Below, one piece after another: positions 2,005-48,113 of a stretch of DNA of 64,000 nt; positions within the stretch are counted from its first letter, which is position 1, and every line of letters begins with the position of its first letter. Made by a program: the position numbers and the translations under genes. The stretch is from assembly GCA_038214755.1 (NCBI GenBank), contig JBBQRQ010000008.1, positions 19,013 through 83,012 of the forward strand. Direction: 5' to 3'. This DNA is from Verrucomicrobiota bacterium (GTDB lineage: Bacteria; Verrucomicrobiota; Verrucomicrobiia; Limisphaerales; CANJXF01). The notes under the pieces were generated by a model that was not told where the DNA came from, ran no database searches, and worked only from the letters and a program-made list of their open reading frames with translations.

Positions 2005-2009
2005 AACCC

Positions 2010-3068
2010 ATGAACGCCAACCCGCTTTCACCCGCAACACAGGTTACGCTGCTATTGTGTTCGCCGTTGCGCGCCGGGCGGAACAAGGACGTTCGGACGT
2101 TGAATATCGGCGAGTTCAATGAACTGGAAAAGCAGCTGCTACGTCTCGGTGCGCCGCTGGAACAGTTGCTCGAAACGGACGCTGCGACGCTGCTTAAAAA
2201 GATTTCTCCGGCGATGGATGGGGCAAAAATCGAAACTCTGTTGGGACGCGGCTTCATGTTGAGTATGGCCGTTGAAATGTGGCAAAGCGCGGGCGTATGG
2301 GTCACCAGTCGCAATGAAACTGATTACCCGGAACGCCTGCATCGCCTGAAACAAAATACTCCACCATTGCTTTACGGTTGCGGCGAAAAAAAACTTTTGT
2401 CGCGCGGCGGACTCGCGATTGTTGGATCACGTGATGTGGACGAGGCGGGCGAAGAATTTGCCAAACGCGCGGCGGCATCTGCGGCGCGCGAAGACGTGCA
2501 GGTTGTATCGGGAGGCGCGCGCGGTGTGGACCAATTCGCGATGTTGGCCGCGCTCGAAGTCGGTGGGACAGTTGTAGGCGTACTCGCAGATAGTCTTTTG
2601 CGGTCAGCTACATCTGGCCATGCGCGTGAAGCAATTCAAGACGGACGGCTCACGCTTGTCTCGGCATTCGATCCTGAAGCTGGATTCAATGTCGGCAATG
2701 CGATGCAACGCAACAAACACATTTATGCGCTGGCCGATTTTGGGCTGGTCGTAAGTTCCGGCTACAATGAAGGCGGCACATGGTCGGGCGCGATTGAGCA
2801 ATTGGAAAAACTTCGTCTCACCCCAATCTTTGTTCGCGGCGGCGACGATGTGCCGGAAGGGAATCGCCAGTTGCTTCGACGTGACGCGTTGCCATTTTTG
2901 CCAGAACCGTGGCCAGCTTCGTTGCGCGAATTTTTTGGAGCGTTGTCGCAAAAGAAAGTTCAGTCGATGGAGACAGCCGACTTGTTCGCTCTACATGAAA
3001 CACCGCTCAAATATCATAGCAGCCGACGTGAGGAGGCTCTGAATTCTTCGCGAAAACGAAAGCATTGA
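2010..3068 (+). CDS. DprA/Smf-family protein (RqlI-like partner of the helicase)
   Basis: YPERL..PPLLYG, LAIVGSR, VVSGGARGVD, NAMQRNKHIYALAD, GGTWSGA; starts 5 nt after the helicase stop. Confidence 0.9.
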   Translation: MNANPLSPATQVTLLLCSPLRAGRNKDVRTLNIGEFNELEKQLLRLGAPLEQLLETDAATLLKKISPAMDGAKIETLLGRGFMLSMAVEMWQSAGVWVTSRNETDYPERLHRLKQNTPPLLYGCGEKKLLSRGGLAIVGSRDVDEAGEEFAKRAAASAAREDVQVVSGGARGVDQFAMLAALEVGGTVVGVLADSLLRSATSGHAREAIQDGRLTLVSAFDPEAGFNVGNAMQRNKHIYALADFGLVVSSGYNEGGTWSGAIEQLEKLRLTPIFVRGGDDVPEGNRQLLRRDALPFLPEPWPASLREFFGALSQKKVQSMETADLFALHETPLKYHSSRREEALNSSRKRKH

Positions 3069-3069
3069 A

Positions 3070-4677
3070 ATGAAAACTAAACTCAAGCCCGTCACCCGCA
3101 AACTTTCCGCCAAGCGTGCGCTTGCCACCATTTCGTTACAGCCTGTCGTGCCAGTCAAAGATCGTCGTCTGAATTTTGGCGACAAATGGGATTACGCGCC
3201 CGCGCCGGAAACGGTGCCGGTGAAAATTCAGCCGCGCTACGAATTGTTCATCAACGGGAAATTCACCGCGCCGAGTTCTGGAAAATATTTTGAGTCGATC
3301 AATCCTGCGACCGAACAAAAACTTTCGGACATCGCAGCGGCGAATGGAGCGGATGTGGATGTGGCTGTGAAATCGGCGCGGCGCGCTTATGAAAAAGTTT
3401 GGAGCAAAATGTCGGGACGCGAGCGCGGCAAATATCTTTACCGCATCGCGCGCATCATTCAGGAAAAGTCGCGCGAACTCGCCATGATGGAAACGATGGA
3501 TGGCGGCAAAACCATCAAGGAAAGCCGCGACATCGATCTGCCGCTCGTGGCCGCGCACTTTTTTTACTACGCCGGTTGGGCGGATAAACTGAAATACGCG
3601 TTTCCCGGAAAAACTCCGCAACCGCTCGGCGTCGCGGGACAAATTATTCCGTGGAATTTTCCCTTGCTCATGGCCGCGTGGAAAATTGCTCCGGCCCTCG
3701 CGTGCGGAAATACCGTTGTTTTAAAGCCCGCCGAAACCACCAGCATCACCGCGATGCATCTCGCGCAAATTTTTCAGGAAGCCGAATTGCCTGAAGGCGT
3801 GGTGAACATCGTAACTGGCGCGGGCGAAACCGGCGCGGCCATCGTCAATCATCCTGAGATCAACAAAATCGCGTTCACTGGCAGCACGGAGGTGGGGAAG
3901 GCGATTGCGAAAAGCATTGCGAATAGGAGCGCGGACAGCCATGTCCGCGAGAACCAAAACGGCGGAAAACACGCGGACAAGGCTGTCTGCGCTCCTCGTC
4001 TCACGCTCGAACTCGGCGGCAAAGCGGCGAACATTATTTTCGAAGACGCCCCGATTGATCAAGCCGTCGAAGGAATTATTTCCGGAATTTATTTTAATCA
4101 AGGCCACGTCTGCTGCGCCGGTTCGCGTCTGCTCGTGCAGGAAGGAATTTTCCGGACCGTGATTCGCAAGTTGCGCGACCGCATCGCCACGTTGCGCGTT
4201 GGAAATCCGCTCGATAAAAACACCGACATCGGCGCGATCAATTCGCGGATGCAACTCGAAAAAATCCGCGAGCTGGTGCAAAGCGGCGTCGATGAAGGTG
4301 CTGAATTGGTGCAGCCGCGCTGCGCGTTGCCGGAAAAAGGTTATTGGTATCCGCCAAGTTTTCTAACGGGTGTCACCGCGTCGCATCGCATCGCGCAGGA
4401 AGAAATTTTCGGCCCGGTGTTGAGCGTGATGACCTTTCGCACACCGGAAGAAGCGTTCGAGCGCGCGAACAATACGCCCTACGGATTGAGCGCCGGCGTC
4501 TGGACCGACAAAGGCAGCAAGATTTTCAAGATGGTCAACAAACTCCGCGCCGGCGTCGTCTGGGCAAACACGTTTAACAAGTTCGATCCGACAAGTCCGT
4601 TCGGCGGGTACAAAGAAAGTGGATTTGGCCGTGAAGGTGGTTTGCAAGGACTCGCCGCTTACTGCCGACTCGACTAA
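3070..4677 (+). CDS. NAD-dependent aldehyde dehydrogenase carrying an in-frame repeat insertion
   Basis: IIPWNFP, KPAE, FTGSTEVG, LELGGK, NQGHVCCAGSR, EEIFGPV, PFGGYKESGFGREGG. Confidence 0.96.
   Translation: MKTKLKPVTRKLSAKRALATISLQPVVPVKDRRLNFGDKWDYAPAPETVPVKIQPRYELFINGKFTAPSSGKYFESINPATEQKLSDIAAANGADVDVAVKSARRAYEKVWSKMSGRERGKYLYRIARIIQEKSRELAMMETMDGGKTIKESRDIDLPLVAAHFFYYAGWADKLKYAFPGKTPQPLGVAGQIIPWNFPLLMAAWKIAPALACGNTVVLKPAETTSITAMHLAQIFQEAELPEGVVNIVTGAGETGAAIVNHPEINKIAFTGSTEVGKAIAKSIANRSADSHVRENQNGGKHADKAVCAPRLTLELGGKAANIIFEDAPIDQAVEGIISGIYFNQGHVCCAGSRLLVQEGIFRTVIRKLRDRIATLRVGNPLDKNTDIGAINSRMQLEKIRELVQSGVDEGAELVQPRCALPEKGYWYPPSFLTGVTASHRIAQEEIFGPVLSVMTFRTPEEAFERANNTPYGLSAGVWTDKGSKIFKMVNKLRAGVVWANTFNKFDPTSPFGGYKESGFGREGGLQGLAAYCRLD
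3925..3996. repeat. REP-doublet element (GGAGCGCGGAC family) inserted in frame in ALDH
   Basis: aggagcgcggacagccatgtccgcg...cgcggacaaggctgtctgcgctcct; the same family is intergenic at 21956, 29790, 37277 and 57897. Confidence 0.9.
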
Positions 4678-4689
4678 ATCGCAAAATTC

Positions 4690-5356
4690 TTGTTGTCATC
4701 TGTGAACGAAGCCGTGTGCGAATTCCCATTCCAAATCAAGGCGGAAGGCGCAGCGCAAATGGCGACGCTGCACTTTGCGACCCAAGTCGAACTACGTCGT
4801 TATCATCGCAGCCTGTCGCCATTCGCGCGCGAGGCTTCCACAGTCGTTCGGGAAGCCGTCGAATTCACCCGGCTTGCCGCCAAACGGTGGCGTTATTATT
4901 TCCACACTGATGAAGCCGCCGAGAGTTTTGCCGCTGCAACGCGAAATTCACCGCCACCCAAAATGCGAAGTCGCCTTCATTATGGTTGCCACGATTCGGC
5001 AGGCGAACCGCGACTTGCCGGTTGACCTCGCCTATTGCCGACGAACCTGGTGTCATCACCTTGCGCTTGATTTCCTCGCGTTGCATCCGGGCGCGCTGGC
5101 GCGAAACTGGCGGGTGAGCGGCGTAGGCAGCGGCATCGTATTCGGACTGGTTCAATTGGCGAACGCGTTGAACATTTCGCGCATCTGGGGCGAGGCCACG
5201 GTGAATTCTGCTCCGTTCTACGAAAAGCTGCTGGCCGTTTCTCCCGTTCAAGATTTGTTCCTCATCGAAGCGCCGGAGATGGCGGCCATTACCAAACGGC
5301 AGGAAAAAATCAGCCATCCAACTCTTGTCACCAAAACCACAACTGAACTACATTGA
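4690..5356 (+). pseudogene. GNAT-like acetyltransferase split by a frameshift near 4932
   Basis: ORFs 4690-5025 and 4775-5356 join as ESFAA/LQREIHRHPK; the C-terminal half has LDFLALHP..VSGVGSGIV..EATVNSAPFYEKL. Confidence 0.55.
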
Positions 5357-5565: not shown

Positions 5566-5663
5566 GCGCTGGCGTCGTCTGAGCGAACACGTTCAACAAA
5601 TTCGATCCGACAAGTCCGTTTGGTGGATACAAAGAAAGCGTCTTCGGTTGCGAGGGTGGACTG
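5566..5663 (+). pseudogene. Orphan diverged copy of the ALDH 3' end (matches 4547-4644)
   Basis: Colinear 98 bp, AGVV*ANTFNKFDPTSPFGGYKESVFGCEGGL, mostly third-position differences. Confidence 0.92.
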
Positions 5664-6363: not shown

Positions 6364-7914
6364 ATGAGCCCTCCTCTCTCATTGAATGCACGCTGTGCCC
6401 TTTCGCGATGGAGCGCGGGTATATTCTTCCTCACCGCGCTCGCCGTCGCGGGCGCAGACTGGCCGCAGTATCGCGGTCCCAATCACAACGGCGTTTCAAC
6501 CGATCATCTCAATACACAATGGACCGGCTCTGTAACCAATCCGTTGTGGCTGGTTTCATTCACCAACGGTCTTGGCAGTTTTTCAGTCAGCGGAGCAAGG
6601 GCTTTCACCCAGGTTCGCCGCACCACCAATGATCTCGAAAAGGAATTCTGTGTGGCCTTAAGCAGCGCTAGCGGAACTGAACTCTGGGCGACGATGGTGG
6701 ACGACGGCGATTATCCTGACTTCGGCGTGGGCTTTACCGACGACGGACCGCGCACGACACCAGCCGTCGATGGTGACTCGGTTTATGTGTTGTCGTCCTA
6801 CATCAAATTGTATCGGCTCAATGCCGCCAGCGGCGCGGTGATCTGGCAAAAGGATTTACGGGCAATCTATGGAGGGGAGGTCATCGCGTGGCAAAATGCA
6901 GCGTCACCCTTGATTGAGGATGGGTTGATCTTCGTCAACGCCAACTGTGGGACTTCAACCTTGATGGCATTGCGCACGAGTGACGGAGAACCAGCGTGGC
7001 GCTCGCAGAACGAAGCGATGACCCACGCCACGCCGGTGCTCGCCACCATTCATGGAGTGCGGCAAGTGATCTTTGCCACCCAAAGCGGCCTGGTCTCTTT
7101 GAATCCCCAAACGGGAAATTTGGTGTGGAGATTCGATTACCCGTTTTCCTACACCACTTCACTCGCAGCCTCACCCGCAGTAGATGGAGACATGGTTTTC
7201 GTTACCGGCTTTTACGGGATGGGTTCGGTCGTCGTAAAAATCCTCAACCCGAACGGGACATTCGTGCCGACGCAACTTTGGTACAATGCGTCGCTGCAAA
7301 GCCATTGGTCCACGCCCGTCTGCTATCAGGGATGTCTCTTCGGGCAATTCACGCCGGACGGCGCGAACGCCCAACTGAGATGCATCGACATGGCGAGCGG
7401 CAGTTTGAAATGGGCGGTGAACGGTTTCGGGCGTGGCAGCGTGTCGCTGGTGGGCAATCATCTTCTGGCCATCACGGAACGCGGTCAATTGGTGGCAGCC
7501 CAACCGAACACAAATACCTACACCGAGGTCGCACGTTTTCTGGCAATTCCAGGTTACAACGATGGCGGAAATAAATGTTGGAACTCTTTGGCGGTAGCTG
7601 ACGGAAAAGTTTTTGTTCGTAGCACGGCCTACGCCGCCGCATTTGATCTTTCGCTGCCAGCTCTCAAATTGGATTCGCCCCAACTCGAACCGGCCAACAA
7701 GGTTCAACTCACCATTCGCACTGTCAACGGAACTCCCGTGAACTCCAACCGGCTGGCGGGCTTGTCGGTGCGATCCACCACCAATCTGGCGCTCTCGCCT
7801 TCACTGTGGCCGGCGCTCACCAACAATCTGGTGCTCAGCAACGATGTGCTGCGGGTGGGCGGCGTCGATGCAAAACCGCCCATACAGTTTTTTATCCTGG
7901 ACGAACTACAGTAG
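6364..7914 (+). CDS. Secreted PQQ-binding-like beta-propeller protein with C-terminal extension
   Basis: Signal peptide followed by ADWPQYRGP, GPRTTP and repeated G..xW blades. Confidence 0.88.
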   Translation: MSPPLSLNARCALSRWSAGIFFLTALAVAGADWPQYRGPNHNGVSTDHLNTQWTGSVTNPLWLVSFTNGLGSFSVSGARAFTQVRRTTNDLEKEFCVALSSASGTELWATMVDDGDYPDFGVGFTDDGPRTTPAVDGDSVYVLSSYIKLYRLNAASGAVIWQKDLRAIYGGEVIAWQNAASPLIEDGLIFVNANCGTSTLMALRTSDGEPAWRSQNEAMTHATPVLATIHGVRQVIFATQSGLVSLNPQTGNLVWRFDYPFSYTTSLAASPAVDGDMVFVTGFYGMGSVVVKILNPNGTFVPTQLWYNASLQSHWSTPVCYQGCLFGQFTPDGANAQLRCIDMASGSLKWAVNGFGRGSVSLVGNHLLAITERGQLVAAQPNTNTYTEVARFLAIPGYNDGGNKCWNSLAVADGKVFVRSTAYAAAFDLSLPALKLDSPQLEPANKVQLTIRTVNGTPVNSNRLAGLSVRSTTNLALSPSLWPALTNNLVLSNDVLRVGGVDAKPPIQFFILDELQ

Positions 7915-7924
7915 GAGGTAATTG

Positions 7925-8695
7925 ATGAAGACGAAATTATTTGCGCGCTCATCGAAGAACGTCGCCTTTACGCTCATCGAGCTTTTAGTGGTGATTGCGA
8001 TCATCGCCATTCTGGCGGCGCTGCTTCTGCCATCGCTCGCCGGCAGCAAAGAAAAAGCGCGACGCACCAGTTGTAAGAGTTCCGAGCGCCAACTTCTTTT
8101 GGCCGCGCATCTTTATGGCGACGACAATTTGCAGCGTCTGCCCAGTGGCGCGCCCAACAAACCGATGCCCGAGGATGACGATCATCTGCCCGTAATTAGT
8201 GGCGCGACCAGCAACGCGTTTGTGCAATACCTGGGCCATGAGCGTATGGTTCATTGTCCAAGCTTCGCGGATTATTTCGTGAAGAAACAAACCGAGCGTC
8301 CGTTTGAAGAGCGCCAATACGGCTACGTCATTGGTTACAACTATCACGGCGGTCACTCGAAAACACCGTGGAAACCGATGCCCGGTTTCGACGCCACATG
8401 GGTTTCGCCACAACGCCTGACTGATTCGGGTACGCTGGTTTTGGTGACCGACATGAATGACTGGTCGCCACTCTATGGAAAGAGTTTTACCGCGCATGCC
8501 AAGAGCGGCCCGGTGCTCCAGGAAGTGGACGACGCCAGCCCAAGCGGCCCTGCTCCGTCTGCCGCCGCTATCGGTTCGACGGGTGGGAACATTGGGCTGC
8601 TCGACGGCTCGGTTTCCTGGAAGAACATTCAAAAGATGCAAACCTATCGTGGTTCACAAAAGTGGGACAACGATGGCTGCTGGGCGATGTGGTGA
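7925..8695 (+). CDS. Prepilin-type N-terminal cleavage/methylation protein (PVC DUF1559/H-X9-DG-like)
   Basis: [38 protein letters not shown]. Confidence 0.9.
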
Positions 8696-8703
8696 AACTT
8701 GTT

Positions 8704-8964
8704 TCAGCGATAAATCTCCCGGCGATGCCCGACCGCAACCACCAGAACAACCAATTGTTCGTCCCGGATTTGGTAAATAATGCGGTAGTCACCGACGCGA
8801 ACTCGATAAACATTTTCCTCGCCAGATAGTTTCACGCAGCCGGAGGGTCGCGGATTTTCCCCCAAGCTGCGAAACGCCTGCGTCAAACGTTGTCGCAAAG
8901 ATTGATCCCGCAATTTCTCCAGAAATTTCGTGGGTGTAGCGGCGATGCGAACCGTGTAATTCAC
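8704..8964 (-). CDS. RelE/ParE-family toxin
   Basis: NPRPSGCVKLSG, YRVRVGDYRIIY, VGHRREIYR. Confidence 0.93.
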   Translation of the reverse strand: MNYTVRIAATPTKFLEKLRDQSLRQRLTQAFRSLGENPRPSGCVKLSGEENVYRVRVGDYRIIYQIRDEQLVVLVVAVGHRREIYR

Positions 8965-9161
8965 ATTCCGAGACGTTGTTCCAGTTCGTCAACGGTGATG
9001 CATTCACCGGGATGGGCGAGGGTGGCGCGCGCGGCTTTGAGATCCGCGTCGTTTTCGAGCGTCTCCAATTCCGCTAGATCATCGATTAAAGAAACGACCT
9101 TGTTGGCTCTTTCCACGGAAAGATTTTCCAATTTCGCCACAGCTTCCAGAACAGTGCTCAT
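8961..9161 (-). CDS. Putative antitoxin cognate to the RelE
   Basis: Acidic 66 aa, LENDADLKAARA..ITVDELEQRLGM, 4-nt overlap with the toxin. Confidence 0.82.
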   Translation of the reverse strand: MSTVLEAVAKLENLSVERANKVVSLIDDLAELETLENDADLKAARATLAHPGECITVDELEQRLGM

Positions 9162-9241
9162 GAGTTTATTCTGCCTGGATTAAAACCTTTCTTCAAGCGC
9201 GGCGCATTATTGATTCTCTCACCGTTTCCAAAACATCCTTT

Positions 9242-9361
9242 TCAAAACTTTACAATCTTTCCGCATTTCATCGCCTCCTCACCCGCAATCGCCAGTAAAG
9301 TTGCGTCCACACAATTTTTTACGGACGTGAGCGACTCTCGTTTTGCCAAAATGCATTTCAC
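9242..9361 (-). pseudogene. Orphan diverged copy of the Gfo/Idh/MocA 3' end (matches 10109-10228)
   Basis: VKCILAKRESLTSVKNCVDATLLAIAGEEAMKCGKIVKF* versus VKCILEKSEPLTSVKNCVDATLLAIAGEEAIRKGEIVKL*; 31/39 aa identical. Confidence 0.93.
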
Positions 9362-9436
9362 AGTTTCGGGTGGGTTTCGTCATAGTCGAGATGGTGGCAC
9401 CCACGAAGTTCATTGTTCAGATGAAGGGATAAGTTT

Positions 9437-9787
9437 TCAGATATAGATCAATTGGTTTTTCATTTCCTCGCGAGACGTGGTGTTGAGAATCCCCAGCACA
9501 CGCCGCGCGATCTGTGCCGGCGGACGGCGCACAGCAATAACGATCCCAAAATGCGTTTTGCCGAGTTCAAAATATTCTCGGGCCAAGGCCTCAAAATCTC
9601 GGCGGTTATGCGTCAAAATTGTTTTCCCAGCCTCGGCTGCATAGCTTAACTGTTGGGCATCTTCCGCTTCATTCATCCCCGCCATCTGTGTCGTTGTGAA
9701 AGAGTAGAAGCCGCGAGCTTGAACAAGTTTTCCAATCAACGGATCAACGTCTTCATCCAAATGCAACTCAATAGCAGGTCCCGTCAC
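9437..9787 (-). CDS. DUF5615 PIN-like toxin
   Basis: LHLDEDV, DAQQLSYA, ILTHNRRDF, HFGIV. Confidence 0.88.
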   Translation of the reverse strand: MTGPAIELHLDEDVDPLIGKLVQARGFYSFTTTQMAGMNEAEDAQQLSYAAEAGKTILTHNRRDFEALAREYFELGKTHFGIVIAVRRPPAQIARRVLGILNTTSREEMKNQLIYI

Positions 9788-10065
9788 AGGTGTTTGACTC
9801 GGGGGTCAATCCATTCATCCGGAATGCGATTGCGTTCAATGTAATTATGGATTTCTTCCTGATGATCGCTGTAATAACTGAGGGCATCAAAAATTTGTGC
9901 CATGGAAAGGTGTGGCACCGACTGTAGAATTTCTTCCGGGCTTTTTCCCATACGCCAAATTTCTACAATCGCGCGCACTGTCACCCGCGTGCCTTTGATG
10001 ATTGGTTCCCCGCCCGCGATTTTTTCGTTCCTGCCGATGTAACAATGTTCTGTGGCCGTTGTCAT
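9784..10065 (-). CDS. DUF433 antitoxin
   Basis: IAGGEPIIKGTRVTV, PHLSMAQIFDALSYY. Confidence 0.92.
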   Translation of the reverse strand: MTTATEHCYIGRNEKIAGGEPIIKGTRVTVRAIVEIWRMGKSPEEILQSVPHLSMAQIFDALSYYSDHQEEIHNYIERNRIPDEWIDPRVKHL

Positions 10066-10108
10066 AAATCCATTGTGCCTTTGCGGACACCTGTCTTCAA
10101 GCGCCGCA

Positions 10109-11146
10109 TCATAACTTAACTATTTCTCCTTTTCTAATGGCTTCCTCACCCGCAATCGCCAGTAAGGTTGCATCCACACAATTTTTCACGCTGGTTAGCG
10201 GCTCAGATTTTTCCAAAATGCATTTCACAAATTCGAGGTGGATTTCATCGAAGCCCAGATGATTTCCCCAGCCTTCGCCGAAATTCGCGGCGACTTTGCG
10301 GATGATCGGTTCTTTCTGATTTGTTCCGCGTTTCCATTGCAGAATTTCGATTTGCGAAATGCGCGTTTGCAAGATGCCGCCGTCGCCGATGATTCCCATC
10401 TCCAAATCTTCGTGGGGAAAATCAAGCGCGAACATGCAGAGTTGATGCGTTCCGAGAACGCCATTTTCGTATTCAAAACTCATCGTGACGTGATCGTGGA
10501 CTTGATGCGGCCCTTCGATCACGCGATTGACCGCGTTCCCGCCGAACGCCGCGACACGTTTTGGTTTTGAGCTGACCCACCAGTTCATCAAATCGAAGTG
10601 ATGACAATTTTTATCGACGAGCGCGCCGCCGGAGCGGCGTTCATCCTGAATCCAATCCCGAGATTTTTTTTGAAACGGCCCGCGAAATTCTTTGCACCAA
10701 ACCATGCGGGGCGCACCGATTTCTCCCGCATCGACGAGCGATTTTATTTTCTGGAAAAACGGCGAGTAACGCAGTTCGTGGCCGATCATTATAACGCGAT
10801 CCGATTTTTCCGAAGCGGTCAGAAGTTTCTGACATTCCTCCCGCGTGATGCCACACGGCTTTTCGAGAAACAGATGCTTTCCTTCGCGTAAAATTTCGAG
10901 CGCGAGCGGGACGTGCGTAAAATTAGGAGTGGAAACGATGACGGCATCGAGCGGTGAAGCGATGAGTTCAGATTCGTTTTTGAAAACTTTTACTTTTGAT
11001 GAAAGTTCGAGAGCTTTTTTGATGTTCGCGTCGTTGGAAGAACAGATGGCGGCAATCTCGATTTGTTCGCCGCAAAGTTTTGCGAACGAATTCACGTGGC
11101 TGAACCCCATCGCGCCCAAGCCCAGAAAACCGAATCGCAGTTTCAC
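10109..11146 (-). CDS. Gfo/Idh/MocA-family oxidoreductase
   Basis: GFLGLGAMG, VSTPNFTH, LEKP, GGALVDKNCHHFD; GTG start chosen. Confidence 0.93.
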   Translation of the reverse strand: MKLRFGFLGLGAMGFSHVNSFAKLCGEQIEIAAICSSNDANIKKALELSSKVKVFKNESELIASPLDAVIVSTPNFTHVPLALEILREGKHLFLEKPCGITREECQKLLTASEKSDRVIMIGHELRYSPFFQKIKSLVDAGEIGAPRMVWCKEFRGPFQKKSRDWIQDERRSGGALVDKNCHHFDLMNWWVSSKPKRVAAFGGNAVNRVIEGPHQVHDHVTMSFEYENGVLGTHQLCMFALDFPHEDLEMGIIGDGGILQTRISQIEILQWKRGTNQKEPIIRKVAANFGEGWGNHLGFDEIHLEFVKCILEKSEPLTSVKNCVDATLLAIAGEEAIRKGEIVKL

Positions 11147-11211
11147 TTGAGAAGTAAATCCCACAACGTTTGCCGTTTGCAATTTCCATCCTGGCGCGAA
11201 ACACTTTCTCG

Positions 11212-12501
11212 GTGGAGACCAAACACATCGTGGTTCTCGGAGCGGGTTTCGGCGGTTTGACTTTTTGCCAGGATTTTCACCATGCCTCGGCTCGCGTGAC
11301 TTTGATTGACCGCCAAAATCATCATTTGTTTCAACCATTGCTCTATCAGGTCGCCTCCGCTGGTTTGTCCGCGCCAGACATCGCGCAACCGATTCGTTCG
11401 ATCCTCGCGGAGAAAGATAACCTCGTCGTGTTGATGGAAAACGTGGTCGATCTCGACTTGAAAGAAAGGCGCGTCACTCTCGAAAAGAAAAATCTTCATT
11501 ATGATTATCTAGTTTTAGCGCTCGGCAGCATGACCGGATATTTTGGTCATCCAGAATGGGAACCATTTGCTCCGGGATTAAAGACACTCGACGACGCCTT
11601 GCGGATTCGCCGCGAAATTTTATTCGCATTTGAAAAAGCCGAAACGGAAACGGATCCTGCGAAACGCGAACAACTTTTGACCATGGTCATCGTGGGCGGC
11701 GGGCCGACCGGCGTGGAGTTGGCGGGCGCTTTTGCGGAATTGCGCCGTTACGTTTTGGCGCGAGACTTCGATCACATTGATCCAACCAAAGCGCGCGTGA
11801 TTTTGATCGAGGCCAGCCCGCGCGTGTTGTCGCATTTGTCAGAGCACCTTTCCGAAAGCACGCAGGAACAGCTTGAGAAACTTGGCGTGGAAGTTCGCCT
11901 GAACACGCGCGTCAAAAACATCACGAGCAAATGTGTCGAGTTTGTCAGCGGCGAAATGATCCATGCCGAAAATATTATTTGGGCGGCGGGCGTGGCGGCC
12001 TCGCCCTTGACTAAAAAACTGGGCGCGGAACTCGACAAAGCGGGCCGCGTGAAAGTGAATTCCGATTTAAGTTTGCCGGATCATCCCGAAGTTTTTGCGA
12101 TTGGCGACATGGCGCTGGTGCTCGACGAAGACGGCAAACAAGTTCCCGGCGTTTCTCCCGCTGCGATGCAAATGGCGCGGCACGTTTCGCAAATCATTCA
12201 CGAGGAACTGACTTATCCCGGTCGCGCGGAACGTCCGCGATTCAAATATTGGGACAAAGGAACGATGGCGACGATTGGCCGTTCCGCGGCCGTCGCGAAA
12301 ATTAAAAATTTTGAATTCACGGGATACTTTGCGTGGCTGGCCTGGCTGTTTATTCACCTGCTTTTTCTGGTGGGACTTCGCAACAAAATTTCCGTTTTGT
12401 TTTCGTGGGCCTATTCCTACTTCACCTACAAACGCGGGTCGCGAATCATCACGGGTCTGCAAAACGACGACGCGGTTCAGAACCTGGGCGATACGGTTTA
12501 A
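11212..12501 (+). CDS. ndh: Type II NADH dehydrogenase (NDH-2)
   Basis: VVLGAGFGG, HLFQPLLYQVA, VGGGPTGVELAG, IWAAG, FAIGD. Confidence 0.92.
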   Translation: METKHIVVLGAGFGGLTFCQDFHHASARVTLIDRQNHHLFQPLLYQVASAGLSAPDIAQPIRSILAEKDNLVVLMENVVDLDLKERRVTLEKKNLHYDYLVLALGSMTGYFGHPEWEPFAPGLKTLDDALRIRREILFAFEKAETETDPAKREQLLTMVIVGGGPTGVELAGAFAELRRYVLARDFDHIDPTKARVILIEASPRVLSHLSEHLSESTQEQLEKLGVEVRLNTRVKNITSKCVEFVSGEMIHAENIIWAAGVAASPLTKKLGAELDKAGRVKVNSDLSLPDHPEVFAIGDMALVLDEDGKQVPGVSPAAMQMARHVSQIIHEELTYPGRAERPRFKYWDKGTMATIGRSAAVAKIKNFEFTGYFAWLAWLFIHLLFLVGLRNKISVLFSWAYSYFTYKRGSRIITGLQNDDAVQNLGDTV

Positions 12502-12608
12502 AATTAAAAGGGTTCTCGCGATCACCTTCACGGACAAATCCTTTTTATCGCTTTGGATGCGAGACGCGGAATTGACCCTCTGCACGGGAAGTGCTACCTA
12601 CCTCGCTA

Positions 12609-12863
12609 ATGAAATCCACCTTCACCATCGCGGAAGCTCAGGCCAATTTTTCCAGGATCGCTCGAAGCAATTCGGTGGTCGGCATTTCCAAGAACAGCAA
12701 AGTGATCGGCTTTTACATTCCGCGAGAACGGTTTGAGGGCTTGCTCGAAACGATGGAAATTCTCGCCAACCCCGAAGCCATTAAATGGATCAACGCGGAT
12801 AAGGCAGGCAAGCTTAAATATAAACCATTGGCCGAGTGCGAAAAAGAATGGGGGATCGATTGA
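12609..12863 (+). CDS. Phd/YefM-family antitoxin
   Basis: FTIAEAQANFSRI, LLETMEILANPEA. Confidence 0.85.
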   Translation: MKSTFTIAEAQANFSRIARSNSVVGISKNSKVIGFYIPRERFEGLLETMEILANPEAIKWINADKAGKLKYKPLAECEKEWGID

Positions 12864-13147
12864 TCCGTTTGTCTCCGCAAGTTAACGCCTACATTAAAAC
12901 GCTTCCACCGGAGACCCGCCGAAAAGTTCGGGACGCCTTGCGCGGGTTGGAGCAAGGTCAAGGAGAGATTGCCCCGCTCCAGAGGCAACTCGAAGGTTAT
13001 CACCGCCTCAAACTTCCGCCCCGCCGGGTAATCTTACGCTATCAGGAAAGCTCTCGCGGCCCGGAATGCTATTGCGCCTTCATCGAAATGCGCGACGTGG
13101 TTTACGAAGCTTTTGCCGCCATTGTCTCCGGGCAAGAACATATCTAA
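12860..13147 (+). CDS. RelE-like toxin
   Basis: LEGYHRLKL..RVILRY, RDVVYE; 4-nt overlap with the antitoxin. Confidence 0.8.
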   Translation: MIRLSPQVNAYIKTLPPETRRKVRDALRGLEQGQGEIAPLQRQLEGYHRLKLPPRRVILRYQESSRGPECYCAFIEMRDVVYEAFAAIVSGQEHI

Positions 13148-15042: not shown

Positions 15043-17318
15043 TGCGGCGTGTAAACGGTTGTCTTGTCGAAGTGAAGATTTTCAACTGAGCGACCGGCCA
15101 AACTGAAATTGGCTGAGAAGGGCTGGAATCTGTCGGTTAAGGTGTAAGCTCCGCTTTCTTGGCGAGCGTCCCAATATAGATAGCTCATTATGACCGTATG
15201 ATCGATCAGAGGTTTTCCCCTTTTTCGGCGGCTCTCATTTTCAGCCGCGTGCGCGCGTCGCCCGGCTTCCACCCAGGCGTTGATGACGGTCATAGGTGTG
15301 CCGTTTAATTCTCCTTGTAGACCTTGCGCCCAAAGCCTGCCCATTGTTGGGTAAATGTAGATGGTCGATCCAGTGGCAAGATACACATTCAAGGAAGCGC
15401 TCATCGGCCAAAAGCCCCGTTCCTTCACACCCCCCGCCCAACGGGTTTGCGTCAAAGCATTGCACCCGTAGTAGCCCATCCACTTAAGAAATTGGCTTCC
15501 GAATCTCATTTCCGCATCGGGAACCCATGTGTAACCATTGGTGTTCTGGCTGCTGTTGTACAAAGGATAGCTTGCCAGCGAACCAAACGTCCCTGAGGGC
15601 CAGCCGGGTGGATTATATTCAACGGTGTGTCCGGCTAAAATGCCGATGTTACAGCCCGAATTAAATTTGCTGTTAAGCGAATTAATTCCCTGAGGAGTCT
15701 TGCCCGCGCCCACAAGATTGGTTTTGGTGAGTGCATCATCAATCAGATGAAAATTATTCCTCCAAGAAGGAAATTTCGTGGATTTCGCCCCCTGCGCCAT
15801 TTTATCTATGAACCCTTTTGCAACGGCCGTTGCGTTCTGTAGCGGCCCATACGCCCACGCCGTTTTAGGATGATGCCCCTGCGAACCTGCGCCAGTCACG
15901 CCGACAAACGACATTTGGGTGCGGCCGGGCTCTCGGTGAGGATCTCGGGTGGTTTGATTAGTTTGGCTTCCTGCAACCGCAGGTTGAAACGCATCGAGAT
16001 TTTCTGATGATAACGTGGTGGGTTCGATTGAACTTTTCGCAACGGCTGGAGTTTTCTGAAAAGAAGGATTAGCGCTTAGTTGAGCGATCATGCCCGGCGG
16101 CAGCGGTGGCAACTCCGGCTCCATTAGTTGGCTACCCCGTGCAGCTTCATTAGCTTTTAATGCGGCCTTGCGTGCCACAAACCACGGAACCCGCTTCGCA
16201 CGATGAGCAAGAGCCGAAGAAGCAGCAGAATCTATTGGCAATGGAATCGAGAAATAGCCATTTTTAATTGGTTTTTCTACAAATGATTTTGCTCCTTCGA
16301 TGGCGGAACCTGACTCAGTGCTCTGCAATGACCCCGGAGCCGGTGGCGGGTCACTCGGCGGTGAATTCGTGTCTTCGCCTTCGCTGGATTGGCCCCCTCC
16401 AATAACCGCTGCGGTCAAAATGTAATCATAATATCCCGGCGGATAAAAATTGTTAAAGCCGTCGGAGCCGTCCCATTCCCCATAGATTTCCGTTCCCGTG
16501 CCCGTTATCATTTTTACCGTATTCTCATTCTCGTCCACGATTTCAACGCTCCAATCGCAATTAAGAACAAGGTTTGCGTAAACGATTTGCTCTTCTGGAA
16601 AAGAAGGATCAAAAGGATCAAAGAATGGATTCACAATAGTGAAGTCTTGAATCAAATTATCGAAATGAAGCGTGATTGGCGCAGAACATCCGACATCGAG
16701 ATTGCCGCTGGTGTCGTCACCTGCGCCGCCCGTCGTTTCCCCGGACGTAGCAAGTTCAACGGTGGCATGGATTACATGATCTCCATTAATCCATTCGCAT
16801 GTATTTATGGAGAACTGGAAAGAATCAACGTCCGTTTCTTCATCGACTCGTTGTCCGTCAACATAGAGGCGAATCCAACCTACCTGATTGGTTGTGTTAA
16901 CGGTTACTTCGACGATCAAATTGCTGCTGACTGTCGCATTGTTCGTTGGCGCAACGATGGAAATCGAAACAGGCGCGTTCGTGGATTGCGCGACTTGCCG
17001 CACTCGATAAAAACGATGAGGCCTGTCAGCGGGGTGAAGGATTCGGTTTAACGCAGTCGGGTCACCATAATCGAGCCACGTCGTATTTGTGCCTTGCGAA
17101 ACAATGCGTTGTTCCCTCGGGATAAACGCCAAATTGCCATCCTGATCTACTGCCGAAAGATTTCCCACAGACTGAACCTCATACACCGCGCCGGTTTCAC
17201 TCTGCCAATGCAGTTGAATGGATAAATCGTCGAAGACGCGAGGCTGTTTGAGCACGGGTTGCGCGAGAAGCGGCGAGGCGGCGATTGAGAAGAGAAGAAT
17301 GAGTTGGTTACGTTTCAT
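15039..17318 (-). CDS. Secreted multidomain protein: Ig-like, FlgD-like and C-terminal DUF6345-like domains
   Basis: Signal peptide MKRNQLILLFSIAASPLLA; IRLYVDG; WDGSD..YPPGYYDY; GILAGH...FGSQFLKWMGYYGCNAL. Confidence 0.75.
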   Translation of the reverse strand: MKRNQLILLFSIAASPLLAQPVLKQPRVFDDLSIQLHWQSETGAVYEVQSVGNLSAVDQDGNLAFIPREQRIVSQGTNTTWLDYGDPTALNRILHPADRPHRFYRVRQVAQSTNAPVSISIVAPTNNATVSSNLIVEVTVNTTNQVGWIRLYVDGQRVDEETDVDSFQFSINTCEWINGDHVIHATVELATSGETTGGAGDDTSGNLDVGCSAPITLHFDNLIQDFTIVNPFFDPFDPSFPEEQIVYANLVLNCDWSVEIVDENENTVKMITGTGTEIYGEWDGSDGFNNFYPPGYYDYILTAAVIGGGQSSEGEDTNSPPSDPPPAPGSLQSTESGSAIEGAKSFVEKPIKNGYFSIPLPIDSAASSALAHRAKRVPWFVARKAALKANEAARGSQLMEPELPPLPPGMIAQLSANPSFQKTPAVAKSSIEPTTLSSENLDAFQPAVAGSQTNQTTRDPHREPGRTQMSFVGVTGAGSQGHHPKTAWAYGPLQNATAVAKGFIDKMAQGAKSTKFPSWRNNFHLIDDALTKTNLVGAGKTPQGINSLNSKFNSGCNIGILAGHTVEYNPPGWPSGTFGSLASYPLYNSSQNTNGYTWVPDAEMRFGSQFLKWMGYYGCNALTQTRWAGGVKERGFWPMSASLNVYLATGSTIYIYPTMGRLWAQGLQGELNGTPMTVINAWVEAGRRAHAAENESRRKRGKPLIDHTVIMSYLYWDARQESGAYTLTDRFQPFSANFSLAGRSVENLHFDKTTVYTPQ

Positions 17319-17471
17319 ATTTAAGTTTTTTTTGGAAATCCATACGAATCCTCGCTCGGCAATTTTCACGGTTGCGCGGCCACTCTCCGCGGTCTGCGTA
17401 AGTGAAGCAAGCACAAAACTTAGCCTGCGGGTTATGGCCGGTTTTTTTGCTGCTTGTTTCTGTAATCGCCC

Positions 17472-17714
17472 GTGTCAGAAATTCCACAACATCGACTTGC
17501 CGTCGCCAAAACGATTCGCAAGTATCGGCTCAAAGCGGATTGGAGTCAGGAAAAACTCGCAGAAATGGCGGACCTTCATCCCGTTCATATTAGCAATCTG
17601 GAACACGGGAAAAAAAATATTTCTTTGGACACGCTCGTGAAAGTCGCCGACGCGTTGGGAGTTCAATTGTCCCAGTTGGTTCGCAATGTTCAGCCAAAAG
17701 AGAAGAACGACTAG
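17472..17714 (+). CDS. XRE-family HTH regulator
   Basis: IRKYR..WSQEKLAE..ISNLEHGKKNISLDTLVKVADALGV. Confidence 0.92.
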   Translation: MSEIPQHRLAVAKTIRKYRLKADWSQEKLAEMADLHPVHISNLEHGKKNISLDTLVKVADALGVQLSQLVRNVQPKEKND

Positions 17715-17805
17715 AGGCGTGGGATTGTATCTCCGGTAAACGACTTGCGATTTTAAGTGGGTGTAACTGGTATATGACACACGTTCGGAATCGGCGCTTT
17801 GATTC

Positions 17806-20800
17806 TTATCCCTTCAACTTCACGATCAAATCCTTGCTCTCCACCGTGTCGCCGACTTGCGCGAAAATTTTGTCCACCGTCCCGTCCGCTGACGCGTAAA
17901 TTGTCGTCTGCATTTTCATCGCTTCCATCGTGAGCAGCTTGTCGCCTTTCGCCACTTTCGCTCCAACGGTGGCGTTGACTGTTGTAATCAAACCGGGAAT
18001 CGGCGCGCCGATTTGCAATGGGTCGGCGGGATCGGCTTTGAGACGCGGCTTGGTTTTTGGCTGGACAGAACGATCTTGAATTGCCGTTTCGCGCGACATG
18101 CCGTTTAATTCAAAGGTGACAATTCTGCGCCCGTCCTTGTCCACTTGTCCGATGTTGATGAGACGAATAAAAAGCGTTTTGCCTTCTTCGATGTCCACGG
18201 AAACTTCCTCGCCCGGTTTCAGTCCATAAAAAAAGGCGGGAGTCGGCAACACGCCCACATCGCTGAAATCGCGATTGAATTTTGTGAACTCAGCAAAAAC
18301 GTCGGGATACATCAAATGGCTGTAAAGATCGTCTGCGGTCGCTTCGCGTTTCAATTTCCCGGAAATTTCTTCGCGAACTTTTTTCAAATTCAGCGGTTTC
18401 AAATTCGCGCCTGGCCTGGTCGTCATCGGCTTTTGATTTCCCAAAACGACTTGCTGCAATTTTTTCGGCCAGCCGCCAAGAGGTTGTCCGAGATTGCCCA
18501 TGAGCATGTCGATGACGGACTCGGGAAATGGCGTGGCGCCCGGTTCCAAATTCAAAACATCCGCCGGCTTGATGCCGCGCGTGATCAAAAACATCGCCAT
18601 GTCTCCGACGACTTTGCTGCTCGGCGTGACTTTGACAATGTCGCCGAAAAGTTGGTTTACCTCGGCGTAAGTGCGCGCTATTTCCGGCCAGCGATTTCCC
18701 AGACCCATGCTCGCCGCTTGCTCCTTGAGATTCGTGTATTGGCCGCCCGGCATTTCGTGCAGATAAACTTCCGCGCTGCCACTGCGCGGGGCGGTGTCGA
18801 ACGGTTTGTAAAATTGCTGAACGTGCTCCCAGTAATCGGAAAATTCATCGAGCGTTTCCAAATTCAATTCGGTGTCGCGCGGAGTATTTTTCAGCGCGGC
18901 CACGAGCGAATTCAAATTCGGCTGGCTCGTTGAACCACTCATTGACGCAATCGCCAAATCCACCACATCCACATTCGCGTCGCTGGCGCGCAAAATTGCG
19001 GAGGCGTTGATCCCGCTTGAATCGTGCGTGTGAAAGTGAATGGGAATTCCGATTTCTTCTTTCAACGCTTTGACCAATTGAAAGGCGGCGTACGGCCGGC
19101 ACAATCCGGCCATGTCTTTGATCGCGAGAAAATGCGCGCCCATCCGTTCGAGTTCCTTCGCGAGGTTCACATAATATTTCAGAGAATATTTTGTGCGCTT
19201 CGGGTCGAGAATATCGCCGGTGTAACAAATGGCCGGTTCGCAAATCGCCCGCGTTTTCTGCACCGCCTCCATCGCGACTTTCAAATTCGGCGTGTAATTG
19301 AGCGAATCGAAAATCCGAAAAATATCGATGCCCGCTTCCGCGGAATGCTTTACAAAACCGGCGACGACATTGTCGGGATAATTGGAATAGCCCACCGCAT
19401 TCGAGCCACGAAAAAGCATTTGGAAACAGATGTTGGGAATGCGTTCGCGAAGTTGGCGGAGCCTTTTCCACGGGTCTTCGTGGAGAAAACGCATCGCGGT
19501 ATCGAAGGTCGCGCCGCCCCACATTTCCAAACTGAAAAGTTCCGGCGTGCGGCGAGCCACTGCGCCTGCAATCGCGAGCATGTCGTAGGAACGAACGCGC
19601 GTGGCGAGGAGCGATTGGTGCGCGTCACGAAACGTAGTGTCGGTGATGAGCAAACGTTTTTGTTTCAGCGTCCATTCGGCAAATTTTTTCGGGCCAAGTT
19701 CAATAAGGAGTTGGCGCGTGCCCTTCGTTGGAATTTGTTTGTGGTCGTAAGTAGGAGGAGTCGCTGGCGTCAGCGCCTTTTGCGGGAGGTAACCTTTGGC
19801 TTGCGGATTGCCGTTGATGATGACGTCGCCTAAAAAATTCAGAAGCTTGGTCGCGCGGTCGCGGCGCGGCTTGAACTTGAACAACTCCGGCGTGGTGTCG
19901 ATGAGTGTAGTGGTCGCAAATCCATCGCGAAAAACTTTGTTGTGAATGACATTCTCAAGAAAGGGGATGTTCGTCTTGACTCCGCGAATTCTGAATTCCC
20001 GCAAGACGCGATCCATGCGTTGCAGCGCCATGTGAAAATCCTGGCCGCTCGCCGTAATTTTCACGAGCAATGAATCGTAAAACGGCGTGATGACAGAACC
20101 GGCGTAACCCATGCCGCCGTCCAAACGAACACCAAAGCCGCCCGCTGATCGATAGGTCAAAATTTTTCCGTAATCGGGCGTGAATTTATTTTCCGGATCT
20201 TCCGTGGTGACGCGGCATTGCACGGCGCAACCGTTGCGTGGAATTTTTTCCTGAGGCGGCAAATTAATTTCCGGCCCGTGCAAAGCGAATCCTTGCGCGA
20301 TCAAGATTTGCGCCCGCACCAAATCGATTCCCGTGATGACTTCGGTCACGGTGTGCTCGACCTGGATGCGTGGATTCATCTCGATGAAAAACCATTCCTT
20401 CGAGTCGAGGTTGTAGAGAAATTCAATCGTGCCCGCGTTGTCGTAACGAACTTCCTTCGCCATGCGCACCGCCGCGTCGCAAAGTTCACCGCGCACTTTT
20501 TCGTCGAGAGCAATGGACGGAGCGATCTCGATCACTTTTTGGTGGCGGCGCTGCACGGAGCAATCGCGTTCGTGCAGATGCAAAACATTTCCGTGTTTGT
20601 CGCCGAGGATTTGCACTTCGATGTGTTTGGCGCGCGGAATATATTTTTCCAAAAACACGGCGGAATTTCCGAAAGCGCGTTCGGCTTCACTGCGCGCTTC
20701 GTCGAGGAGATTTTGCAAATCGCCCGCTTTGTGAACGACGCGCATCCCGCGTCCGCCGCCACCGAAAGCGGCTTTGATGATGAGTGGGAAACCAATTTCC

Positions 20801-48086: not shown

Positions 48087-48113
48087 AAATTCGTGAGGCC
48101 AGGAAGAACGGCT

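Follow-up and report, generated by a model that had tools for sequence, protein, structure and literature searches.

The window, by which we mean the whole 64,000-nt stretch of DNA analysed here, carries on its minus strand an intact Gfo/Idh/MocA oxidoreductase gene (10109..11146, stop codon 10111-10109; Pfam GFO_IDH_MocA 1.8e-21, C3 9.3e-23) followed by two small predicted toxin-antitoxin operons, with an orphan copy of the oxidoreductase gene's 3' end between them. The longest open reading frame of the oxidoreductase extends to 11338, and translation probably starts at the GTG at 11146, which would give 345 aa, the same length as in the orthologues. The last ~185 nt of this gene constitute repeat copy A. 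Behind its stop lies promoter-like module A (10072..10104; GCGC-TTGAAG, 17 nt, CACAAT), 6 nt from the ATG of a DUF433 gene (COG2442; 9784..10065, 93 aa, PF04255 1.1e-19), the predicted antitoxin of a VapBC-like pair whose predicted toxin is the adjoining PIN-like DUF5615 protein (9437..9787, 116 aa, PF18480 1.8e-12). The orphan copy B of the oxidoreductase 3' end comes next (9242..9420), with a 39-codon open frame (9361-9242) that ends in its own stop, and is followed by promoter-like module B (9168..9200; GCGC-TTGAAG, 17 nt, CAGAAT), again 6 nt from the ATG of an antitoxin gene. This second antitoxin, a predicted ParE partner of 66 aa (8961..9161) with 27 relatives and no curated (Pfam) family, precedes a RelE/ParE-family toxin (ParE_toxin; 8704..8964, 86 aa, PF05016 7.4e-16), the stop of which lies 8 nt from the stop of a convergent gene (7922-8695). 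An earlier note on this DNA had described such a stack of enzyme end, motif, toxin-antitoxin pair, second end, motif and second pair, and every element of it is in place on the minus strand. An Rfam scan of 7500-11500 returned no matches at E ≤ 1, and PADLOC matched none of eight small window proteins. The window also holds a DprA gene (2001-3068), a gene present in most bacteria.

Within each pair the antitoxin stop overlaps the toxin start by 4 nt. Family assignments and this overlap give DUF433/DUF5615 the layout of a VapBC-like type II system, with small coupled genes encoding a DNA-binding antitoxin and then a PIN-like toxin. The same order is known from VapBC10 of Synechocystis, a PIN-COG2442 (DUF433) pair in which the PIN protein arrests E. 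coli growth and is neutralised by its DUF433 partner (Ning et al., 2013; PMC3834315). VapBC10 likewise has the DUF433 gene upstream of, and coupled to, the PIN-like gene; the window toxin differs in fitting DUF5615/PIN_10-type models and not the classical PIN model. The second pair combines a RelE/ParE-fold toxin with a predicted cognate partner, as indicated by PF05016 and a fold model. NCBIfam scores for this pair were under the cut-offs of both RelE_StbE and RelB_antitoxin, the 66-aa protein matching RelB_antitoxin at E 0.007, below that model's cut-off. Modelled together, the 66-aa protein and the ParE toxin scored 0.80 (best control 0.01). This exceeds a mark that 51 of 78 solved complexes attain but 2 of 108 mismatched pairs attain too, a pass that may reflect likeness because RelE/ParE (RelBE/ParDE) complexes have already been solved. 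Runs agreed in at least 97% of contacts, with pLDDT of at least 88 for the 66-aa partner, and the model supports binding between the two predicted partners. The closest paralogues in the same genome are 47% identical for DUF433 and 36% for ParE, with none for DUF5615 or the 66-aa antitoxin. Both pairs are presumably active.

The orphan gene end diverges as an orthologous allele would

Copies A and B align over an ungapped 136-nt run with 78% identity at a spacing of 867 nt. When the repeat was searched by BLAST against its own genome, A and B matched at E 1e-28 and the 13 other matches all had E ≥ 0.15; the two copies are unique, with no third copy anywhere in the genome. The alternative C-terminus reported earlier, 39 codons with its own stop, was confirmed, sharing 31 of its 39 residues and 93 of its 117 nt with the live end. 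The repeat length of 120 bp given with it proved too short, the homology reaching ~185 nt upstream of the stop with gaps of 1 and 7 nt. In copy B, 1 nt is deleted near 9370 and a gap of 7 nt lies near 9412, and because of these gaps the remnant is frameshifted above its 39 codons. On the other side of the stop, a 37-nt stretch ahead of module B is missing from copy A; past this insertion the homology restarts, spans the promoter-like motif and ends ~12 nt before both start codons.

The longest exact run common to A and B is 23 nt. This bears on whether two co-existing strains with different pairs were fused into one chimeric contig, a concern for a metagenome-assembled draft of 175 contigs, all the more as the only sequencing run found to contain the stretch is probably the genome's own source. 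With nothing longer in common, the copies offered a word-graph assembler no repeat to join wrongly. A second, independently built assembly of that run yielded one 5371-nt contig that spans 8591-11600, crosses every junction, shows 0 differences and has an even depth of 21, and the architecture recurs in unrelated assemblies, so that we regard an artefact as extremely improbable.

Differences between A and B are concentrated at synonymous sites (11 per 27 sites, against 13 per 90 non-synonymous sites; dN/dS 0.27, binomial p=0.012). With six outgroups for polarity, 8 derived changes fall in A and 8 in B, and 8 are without resolution. Considered jointly, the synonymous bias and the 8-to-8 split indicate that A and B are two diverged functional alleles put together, and not an on-the-spot duplication. 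A local duplication would arise if the DUF433 pair had inserted near the gene end and copied a target of ~230 nt (end plus promoter), the distal copy having decayed since. Such an origin would account for the inclusion of the non-coding promoter module in the repeat and for the frameshifts in the upstream part of the remnant, and its architecture is that described for restriction-modification genes by Furuta et al. (2010; PMC2853133). It predicts neither the preference for synonymous sites nor an equal share of derived changes in live end and remnant, and the codon for one serine is AGC in one copy but TCC in the other. Differences at 26 such gene-end loci of this genome fall on codon positions 1, 2 and 3 in the numbers 78, 70 and 248, a position-3 share of 0.63 that lies at the level of true orthologues (0.63-0.67) and not at the ~0.42 expected if one copy had drifted freely. 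On these grounds we judge insertion with target duplication very unlikely.

Each pair stands alone behind the same gene in a relative

From 413 relatives of the enzyme we retained 80 metagenome loci, one of which (L026, oxidoreductase 83% identical in amino acids) has DUF433 (72%) and DUF5615 (69%) alone directly behind the gene, with no remnant; its homology past DUF5615 ends ~3 nt beyond the stop. In another single locus of the 80 (L027, oxidoreductase 77%), the gene is followed by the antitoxin (79%) and ParE (72%, truncated where the contig ends) alone. The proposal that one anchor had received two different cassettes is borne out by these one-pair states. The earlier note had named a DUF433 pair without the remnant as an observation that would speak against stacking; L026 is exactly such a case, and stacking still stands because a one-cassette allele should look this way. 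In L027 and L025 the gene end is present once and the DUF433 pair is missing, but these relatives are at 77-84% identity only, and an empty site at strain level was not found.

The same two loci could also descend from an old tandem, in which case the ancestor of the window genome, L026 and L027 would have had both pairs, L026 then losing the remnant and the ParE pair and L027 the DUF433 pair through gene-end recombination. Each pair does occupy the same place in a relative, and the divergence of the toxin-antitoxin proteins resembles that of the enzyme (72/69% beside 83% for L026; 79/72% beside 77% for L027). Against common descent of the tandem, L026 is without the remnant, and the stretch from stop to antitoxin in L027 has no homology to that behind B (both 80 nt; score reached by 205 of 500 shuffles). 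At 5 residue positions A and B have in common what L025, L026 and L027 lack, and A is as close to B (76% nt) as to its best orthologue (77% nt). Long drift of the remnant should also have loaded it with more derived changes than are seen in the live end, yet the split is even. Taken together, these observations make an old tandem with differential loss quite unlikely.

The search for closer relatives returned no genome with an enzyme above 83-84% amino acid identity, and no strain in the presumed resident state or in a donor state with the same end. The enzyme was absent at E ≤ 1e-40 from 8 of 8 same-genus genomes, whose ndh genes (82-87%) have other neighbours and therefore provide no usable synteny. 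Neither pair was found near the enzyme at any of 15 loci in 13 further genomes of the order, including the unpublished genome G009.

Similar scars in the genome and arrays elsewhere

Local repeats of 60-400 nt at a spacing of 250-1500 nt are strongly biased in orientation in this genome, with 158 direct versus 20 inverted, compared to 81 direct versus 90 inverted for repeats spaced 5-20 kb apart. Sixty of the repeat pairs are unique two-copy pairs that bracket mini-cassettes, a density of about 12 per Mb; at 20 of these a long flanking gene has its stop no more than 25 nt from the end of one copy. Different genes serve as repeats at the other ~60 scars. Named toxin-antitoxin families occur in 12 of 58 repeat-bracketed regions. 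Only 4 of 17 DUF5615 loci and 1 of 25 ParE loci in the genome lie between such repeats, a point against the origin proposed below. Per 400 kb we counted 8 unique direct pairs here; the control, which is small, gave 1 in a genome of the same genus and 2 in one of the same order.

In other Verrucomicrobiota, relatives of the ParE pair belong to arrays in which as many as four copies of a gene end separate the units. At L223, the live end of a surface-protein gene is accompanied by three more copies of that end, with their stop codons aligned and different cassettes between them, one of which is a relative of the window's antitoxin/ParE pair. The idea of a cassette array thereby gains support, in that relatives of this pair sit in multi-cassette arrays split by copies of another gene's end.

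Promoter-like modules and the integron analogy

The two modules read GCGCTTGAAG-N17-CACAAT at 10104-10072 and GCGCTTGAAG-N17-CAGAAT at 9200-9168. These two sites are the only matches to the motif in the window (0 in 100 shuffles) and in the whole 5.1-Mb genome. We considered the motif as a widespread adapter and rejected this, finding it in 0 of 400 other genomes of the order. Modules A and B and the module of L026 are homologous (score reached by 0 of 500 shuffles), and the module is common to the window and L026 and not to L027. Similarity to the region upstream of antitoxin homologues elsewhere is weak, the score being reached by 0-3 of 300 shuffles for L216 and by 11-45 of 300 for L215.

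The suggestion that these motifs are promoters is backed in part by comparison. The layout of a -35 element, 17 nt, a -10-like element, ~6 nt and a start codon recurs upstream of 6 of 12 antitoxin relatives; a promoter scan tool called 3 sites (2.1 expected), none at either motif, each motif having 8 of 12 consensus positions, below the tool's threshold of 9. We infer that the TTGAAG-N17-CAnAAT modules may be promoters that give rise to leaderless mRNAs. Homology between A and B continues past the stop codon, whereas at most other scar loci it ends there. Two unrelated pairs begin 6 nt behind homologous modules, which a simple two-allele model leaves unexplained.

This arrangement recalls a site-specific platform, in which the gene end and the GCGCTTGAAG module would form an integron-like attachment site and promoter, and promoterless toxin-antitoxin cassettes would be placed by a recombinase encoded elsewhere. 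The exact 6-nt spacing behind homologous modules, the same module in L026 and the arrays in relatives are consistent with such a platform, and the genome carries a true integron integrase on contig C31 (TIGR02249, 446.9 bits versus a cut-off of 265), next to which lies an attC-like hairpin. At the locus itself the analogy to an integron fails: none of the 59 window ORFs scanned matched an integrase or transposase family at E ≤ 1e-5, and an attC would not fit, with only 17-32 nt from the DUF5615 stop to the remnant and 8 nt from the ParE stop to the next stop. A search for inverted repeats found none that fits. The module is moreover confined to two sites in this genome and was not seen in the 400 others, the remaining scars repeat different genes, and copying 185 nt of a gene is not something an integrase does. 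We consider a site-specific platform highly improbable.

Proposed origin of the stack

Rather probably, in our estimate, the stack arose from the cell's own recombination with a relative's DNA that carried the same gene and a different toxin-antitoxin pair. The incoming DNA would have had the same oxidoreductase gene with a different pair behind it, the gene serving as sole homologous handle, and the resident gene end and its pair would have been pushed downstream and not replaced. This could have happened through a homologous crossover in the gene combined with an illegitimate join ~20 nt behind the DUF5615 stop, or through a Campbell-type single crossover of a circular ~870-nt fragment. On which pair came second, for which the earlier note proposed the proximal one, the identities of A and B to L026 and L027 gave no signal, and sliding 120-nt windows compared with four relatives revealed no breakpoint in the live gene that would mark a homologous crossover. 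The earlier note also supposed that recombination between the two copies would excise the proximal pair and that addiction would oppose this loss; the contigs of the one run containing the stretch show no joint of this kind, although rare variants are dropped from contigs. Speaking against recombination with a relative's DNA, recombination between sequences that are 78% alike, with a longest identical run of 23 nt, would be inefficient. The addictive nature of the pairs presumably favours keeping the stack.

The spread of chromosomal toxin-antitoxin and defence genes without a mobile-element enzyme is poorly understood. To this question the locus adds both one-cassette states in relatives, the stack itself in one genome, evidence from sequence for the duplicated ends being orthologous alleles and not products of local duplication, and a genome with ~60 similar scars whose cassette family occurs in longer arrays elsewhere. 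If recombination with relatives is the true origin, conserved genes act as landing pads on which small addictive operons pile up and from which they move between species, and displaced gene ends could be a simple genomic marker for such events in metagenomes.

Comparison with known systems

In orphan arrays of rhs and cdiA, recombination within the conserved region of the gene brings in a new distal part and the old end is displaced downstream with a conserved stub, so that stacks arise. The variable cargo there is the protein's own C-terminal toxin domain with its immunity gene, whereas in the window the anchor is an oxidoreductase with a conserved end (31/39) and the cargo consists of separate operons. 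The likeness to a polymorphic C-terminal cassette that had been proposed for this locus accordingly extends to the architecture and not to a variable C-terminus.

Chromosomal integrons have arrays that include toxin-antitoxin cassettes, and both they and the window locus stack small cassettes that depend on a promoter, possibly one provided by the fixed platform in front of them. The window locus differs in being without integrase or attC and in having a 185-nt gene-end copy as its punctuation. It is conceivable, if fairly unlikely, that Verrucomicrobia possess an integrase-free counterpart of the integron, in which a gene end plus leaderless promoter would be a reusable handle that captures and expresses addictive cassettes from relatives; the cassettes would carry a copy of the handle, stack, and persist, as losing one by handle-to-handle recombination would set its toxin free.

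Homology-facilitated illegitimate recombination, or insertion at a homology border, has reportedly been described in laboratory transformation of transformable bacteria by de Vries and Wackernagel (2002), Prudhomme et al. (2002) and Meier and Wackernagel (2003). It combines one homologous anchor with one illegitimate join and needs no element-encoded enzyme, which is the mechanism proposed here. Natural cassette stacks with displaced gene ends are not known to have been the subject of those laboratory studies.

The closest published parallel is the insertion of restriction-modification genes with long target duplication, for which Nobusato et al. (2000) is said to be a further reference. Furuta, Abe and Kobayashi (2010) described such insertions with repeats of 46-423 bp that often span a start or stop codon, are unique in the genome and come without a mobility gene; the two repeats hardly differ from one another or from the empty site (e.g. 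417/423), which was read as duplication at insertion, and a cycle of insertion, amplification and release via the repeats was proposed (PMC2853133). In Microcystis aeruginosa, a ParE/ParD-like pair lies behind the orthocaspase gene MaOC1, flanked on either side by a 152-bp direct repeat (Klemencic et al., 2021; PMC7935541). Like the window's second pair, this is a ParE-type pair directly behind a host gene and between direct repeats; its repeats are identical, intergenic (from 14 bp after the stop) and accompanied by an inverted repeat, and the locus has no gene-end copy and no second cassette.

Set beside the restriction-modification insertions of Furuta et al. (2010; PMC2853133), the window locus likewise comprises a small addictive unit without a mobility gene, in an insert of less than 20 kb, bounded by genome-unique direct repeats of more than 30 bp that span the end of a flanking gene, which is left intact. 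It departs from them in the history of the repeats. Theirs are near-identical, whereas those of the window are 78% alike and diverged as orthologues are, with dN/dS of 0.27, an 8-to-8 split of derived changes and a position-3 share of 0.63 in place of near-identical copies followed by one-sided decay. The cargo differs as well, since the window holds toxin-antitoxin pairs, two of them stacked, and its repeat includes a promoter-like module.

Results

The window's minus strand carries the toxin-antitoxin (TA) stack reported in the earlier note, and that observation as a whole is confirmed. The Gfo/Idh/MocA oxidoreductase gene, with an NDH-2 gene diverging upstream (11170-12501), runs from a probable GTG start at 11146 to a stop at 10111-10109 and encodes 345 aa, the same length as its orthologues. 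Four bases past the stop lies promoter-like module A (GCGCTTGAAG-N17-CACAAT, 10104-10072), followed after 6 bases by a DUF433 gene (10065-9784, Pfam 1.1e-19) that overlaps by 4 nt a gene for a PIN-like DUF5615 protein (9787-9437, Pfam 1.8e-12). A second oxidoreductase end, the remnant, begins near 9420 and has a stop of its own at 9244-9242, and beyond a 37-nt stretch come module B (GCGCTTGAAG-N17-CAGAAT, 9200-9168), a 66-aa ORF for a predicted antitoxin starting 6 bases past it (9161-8961) and, with another 4-nt overlap, a ParE-family toxin gene (8964-8704, Pfam ParE_toxin 7.4e-16). The convergent gene of a prepilin-type DUF1559 protein (7922-8695) has its stop 8 bases beyond the ParE gene.

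In a repeat search, the 3' end of the intact gene (live end) and the remnant were 78% identical over an ungapped 136 nt at a spacing of 867; with gaps allowed, homology extends some 185 nt back from the stop, and past the stop it picks up again through the promoter-like module. The previously noted count of 31 identical residues in 39 and the spacing of 867 both hold on recount, and the remnant is present as claimed but is longer than stated; above the 39 codons it is frameshifted. Searched against the whole 5.1-Mb draft, 221 nt of the live end matched only itself and the remnant (E 1e-28), with 13 other matches at E >= 0.15. The module motif matched twice in the window versus never in 100 shuffles, and these two matches are also the genome total.

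We then compared relatives of the locus. Of 60 other genomes from the order, 13 have the enzyme at E <= 1e-40, none of the eight same-genus genomes does, and neither TA pair stood beside it at the 15 loci in those 13 genomes (one unpublished genome of the order, G009, supplies one of the 15 loci and one of the six outgroups used for polarising differences). Metagenome contigs of similar divergence have the enzyme adjoining ndh, unlike the same-genus genomes, and the oxidoreductase seems to be accessory in the genus. A metagenome scan for the enzyme gave 413 relatives, with 80 loci kept. One of these, L026 (enzyme 83%), has DUF433 (72%) and DUF5615 (69%) genes directly behind the enzyme gene and the same NDH-2 gene in front, without the remnant or the ParE pair, and another, L027 (enzyme 77%), has genes for the antitoxin (79%) and for ParE (72%, truncated where the contig stops) directly behind it; each is the sole such locus among the 80. 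A GxxExxY gene follows the enzyme in the close relative L025 (enzyme 84%), and an aldehyde dehydrogenase gene does so in more distant relatives. Because no close paralogue of the window's four TA proteins was found in its own genome, which has many TA genes of these families (17 DUF5615 and 25 ParE matches), L026 and L027 have the same cassettes at the same place. The region behind the oxidoreductase is thus a variable spot at which the window carries both alternatives in tandem, with one pair in L026, the other in L027 and both here. At 4880-4960, L026 also carries a near-perfect palindrome of about 25 nt (GGAGCGCCGGTTTGTAACCGG... / ...CCGGTTGCAAACCGGCGCTCC) between enzyme stop and promoter module, which looks like an inserted hairpin repeat.

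Over the 39 codons, the live end and the remnant differ at 24 of 117 bases, with 11 synonymous differences per 27 sites and 13 non-synonymous per 90 (dN/dS 0.27, p=0.012 versus neutrality), and one serine is AGC in one end and TCC in the other. When the differences are polarised against the six outgroups, the live end and the remnant each have 8 derived ones, and the other 8 have no assigned direction. Had the end been duplicated in place and the spare then decayed, the remnant should have gathered more changes than the live end, and synonymous bias should be slight; neither was seen. The two ends agree against L025, L026 and L027 at 5 residues, which places their origin in two lineages that are nearer to one another than to those loci. 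We conclude that the stack joins two alleles of the oxidoreductase locus.

A species-genome scan with the antitoxin-family alignment returned 12 loci, six of which share an upstream layout: a -10-like hexamer follows a -35 element (TTGACx/TTGAAG) after 17 nt, and the start codon comes about 6 nt later. Both window pairs and the pair of L026 are preceded in the same way, and this conserved geometry supports a putative promoter giving leaderless mRNAs. Modules A and B share homology with each other and with that of L026 (a score reached by 0 of 500 shuffles), and A and B precede two unrelated pairs; the ParE pair of L027 has an unrelated upstream stretch. Either the shared module is part of a handle and cassettes were attached directly after it, or cassettes have swapped promoters. 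Some antitoxin-family ORF calls (P0004, P0005, P0011, P0012, P0019) extend upstream through the translated promoter (LLEE..GTL..RV-M), and the name 'methionine synthase I' that one source gives them looks like a mis-annotation.

As for the proteins, VapBC10 of Synechocystis, a PIN-COG2442 (DUF433) pair, is described as a tested toxin-antitoxin system (PMC3834315). The 66-aa protein matched no curated family in family-model searches and has only 27 relatives in a large protein collection. Its fold model with the ParE toxin scored 0.80 (best control 0.01), passing a mark that 51 of 78 solved complexes also passed, as against 2 of 108 mismatched pairs, with at least 97% contact agreement among runs and a partner pLDDT of at least 88. 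The model supports binding of the toxin through the C-terminal half of the 66-aa protein, although the pass may show likeness only, because RelE/ParE complexes have already been solved. Close homologues of this antitoxin (79-84%) without any ParE gene lie at about 3001-3190 of L214, L215 and L216, flanked in all three genomes by the same two long genes on the minus strand, and may be an orphan or domesticated antitoxin. Within the window, two further small two-gene modules were seen, one directly behind the NDH-2 gene (12591-13147, plus strand) with no Pfam family at E <= 1e-5 and one ParE and Unstab_antitox pair (54862-55376, minus strand).

Comparing the genome with itself for repeats of 60-400 nt, we counted 158 direct versus 20 inverted pairs at 250-1500 nt spacing and 81 versus 90 at 5-20 kb, counts that include repeats inside long genes. 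Removal of pairs within one long frame and pairs in repeat clusters left 108 pairs with gaps of 300-1800 nt, 60 of them unique two-copy pairs; 20 of these 60 have a copy whose end is no more than 25 nt from the stop of a long gene alongside. At the 26 loci with a copy ending within 60 nt of such a stop, differences at codon positions 1, 2 and 3 number 78, 70 and 248, a third-position share of 0.63 that equals the 0.63-0.67 for true orthologues of the enzyme and greatly exceeds the 0.42 or so expected had one copy drifted freely. A Pfam search of 97 ORFs between repeat copies in 58 regions placed named TA families in 12 regions (three DUF433/DUF5615, four PIN, and one each of HicB, YafQ/RelB, ParE, AbiEii and TumE) and an IS200-type transposase in one; others hold ordinary enzymes. 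Four more regions have DUF families that we take to be toxin-antitoxin linked. Such repeats, with spans that make up 2.5% of the genome, bracket only 4 of the 17 DUF5615 and 1 of the 25 ParE loci. Unique direct pairs number 8 per 400 kb here, compared to 1 in a same-genus and 2 in a same-order genome; their density may be raised in this genome, although these numbers are small.

The same kind of scar was seen about 4 kb from the stack, where the end of an aldehyde dehydrogenase gene (3070-4677, plus strand; end at 4547-4640) is repeated 926 nt downstream at 5566-5659 with 83% identity, 14 of 16 differences falling at third codon positions and an unannotated 193-aa ORF (4775-5356) lying between the copies. 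Just left of the window (16935-17824 of its contig), a 311-aa gene has a second copy of its last 142 nt (90% identity), and the two copies bracket a DUF4258 gene and a 115-aa ORF.

Arrays punctuated by copies of surface-protein gene ends occur in draft genomes of other Verrucomicrobiota (L223, L224, L225). The large surface-protein gene of L223 ends at 1557, and copies of its last 150 nt or so end at 2244, 2960 and 3594, with stop codons aligned and homology stopping at the stop codon; a fifth, partial copy lies near 4446-4560. Different small cassettes separate the copies, one being a relative (55%/58%) of the window's antitoxin/ParE pair and another a 98-aa ORF with an HNH nuclease gene. The remnants of L223 (1371-4560) are 79-91% alike among themselves versus 65-77% to the live end. 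In L224 and L225, mixed arrays of a similar kind contain ParE, YafQ and Phd/MazF-like modules, among others. These arrays make the window a two-unit case of a wider architecture, in which gene ends would serve as punctuation and addictive cassettes as cargo.

Discussion

The earlier note likened the stack to an integron. Its interpretation is supported in part: the one anchor serves two different cassettes, and the integrase and attC parts of the analogy fall, as no integrase or transposase family matched among 59 window ORFs scanned and neither cassette end has space for an attC. A true integron integrase (TIGR02249, 446.9 bits versus a cut-off of 265) is encoded at the end of another contig (C31, 46598-47611, with 47742-48400), next to the ORF of a first cassette and a hairpin resembling an attC; its attI-side sequence has similar stretches on contigs C148 and C36.

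That about 60 loci use pieces of different genes as repeats points to general recombination and not to a specific site. Two routes are favoured, and both yield the observed product: a homologous crossover in the gene would be combined with an illegitimate join, as in homology-facilitated illegitimate recombination, or a circular fragment would enter by a Campbell-type single crossover. Recombination between the live end and the remnant would be rare because their longest common identical run is 23 bases, and it is plausible that a TA pair resists its own loss by this path.

The stack is one instance of a frequent, integrase-free accretion of addictive cassettes, and matters more as such than alone. 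In the literature searched, with subscription journals outside its scope, we found no description of TA cassettes stacked between orthologous gene-end copies. Nearest in print is what has been called 'insertion with long target duplication', described for restriction-modification genes (PMC2853133), where the repeats are near-identical copies of one target, unlike the gene ends of the window. In Microcystis, one toxin-antitoxin pair is reported to be fenced by identical 152-bp repeats (PMC7935541).
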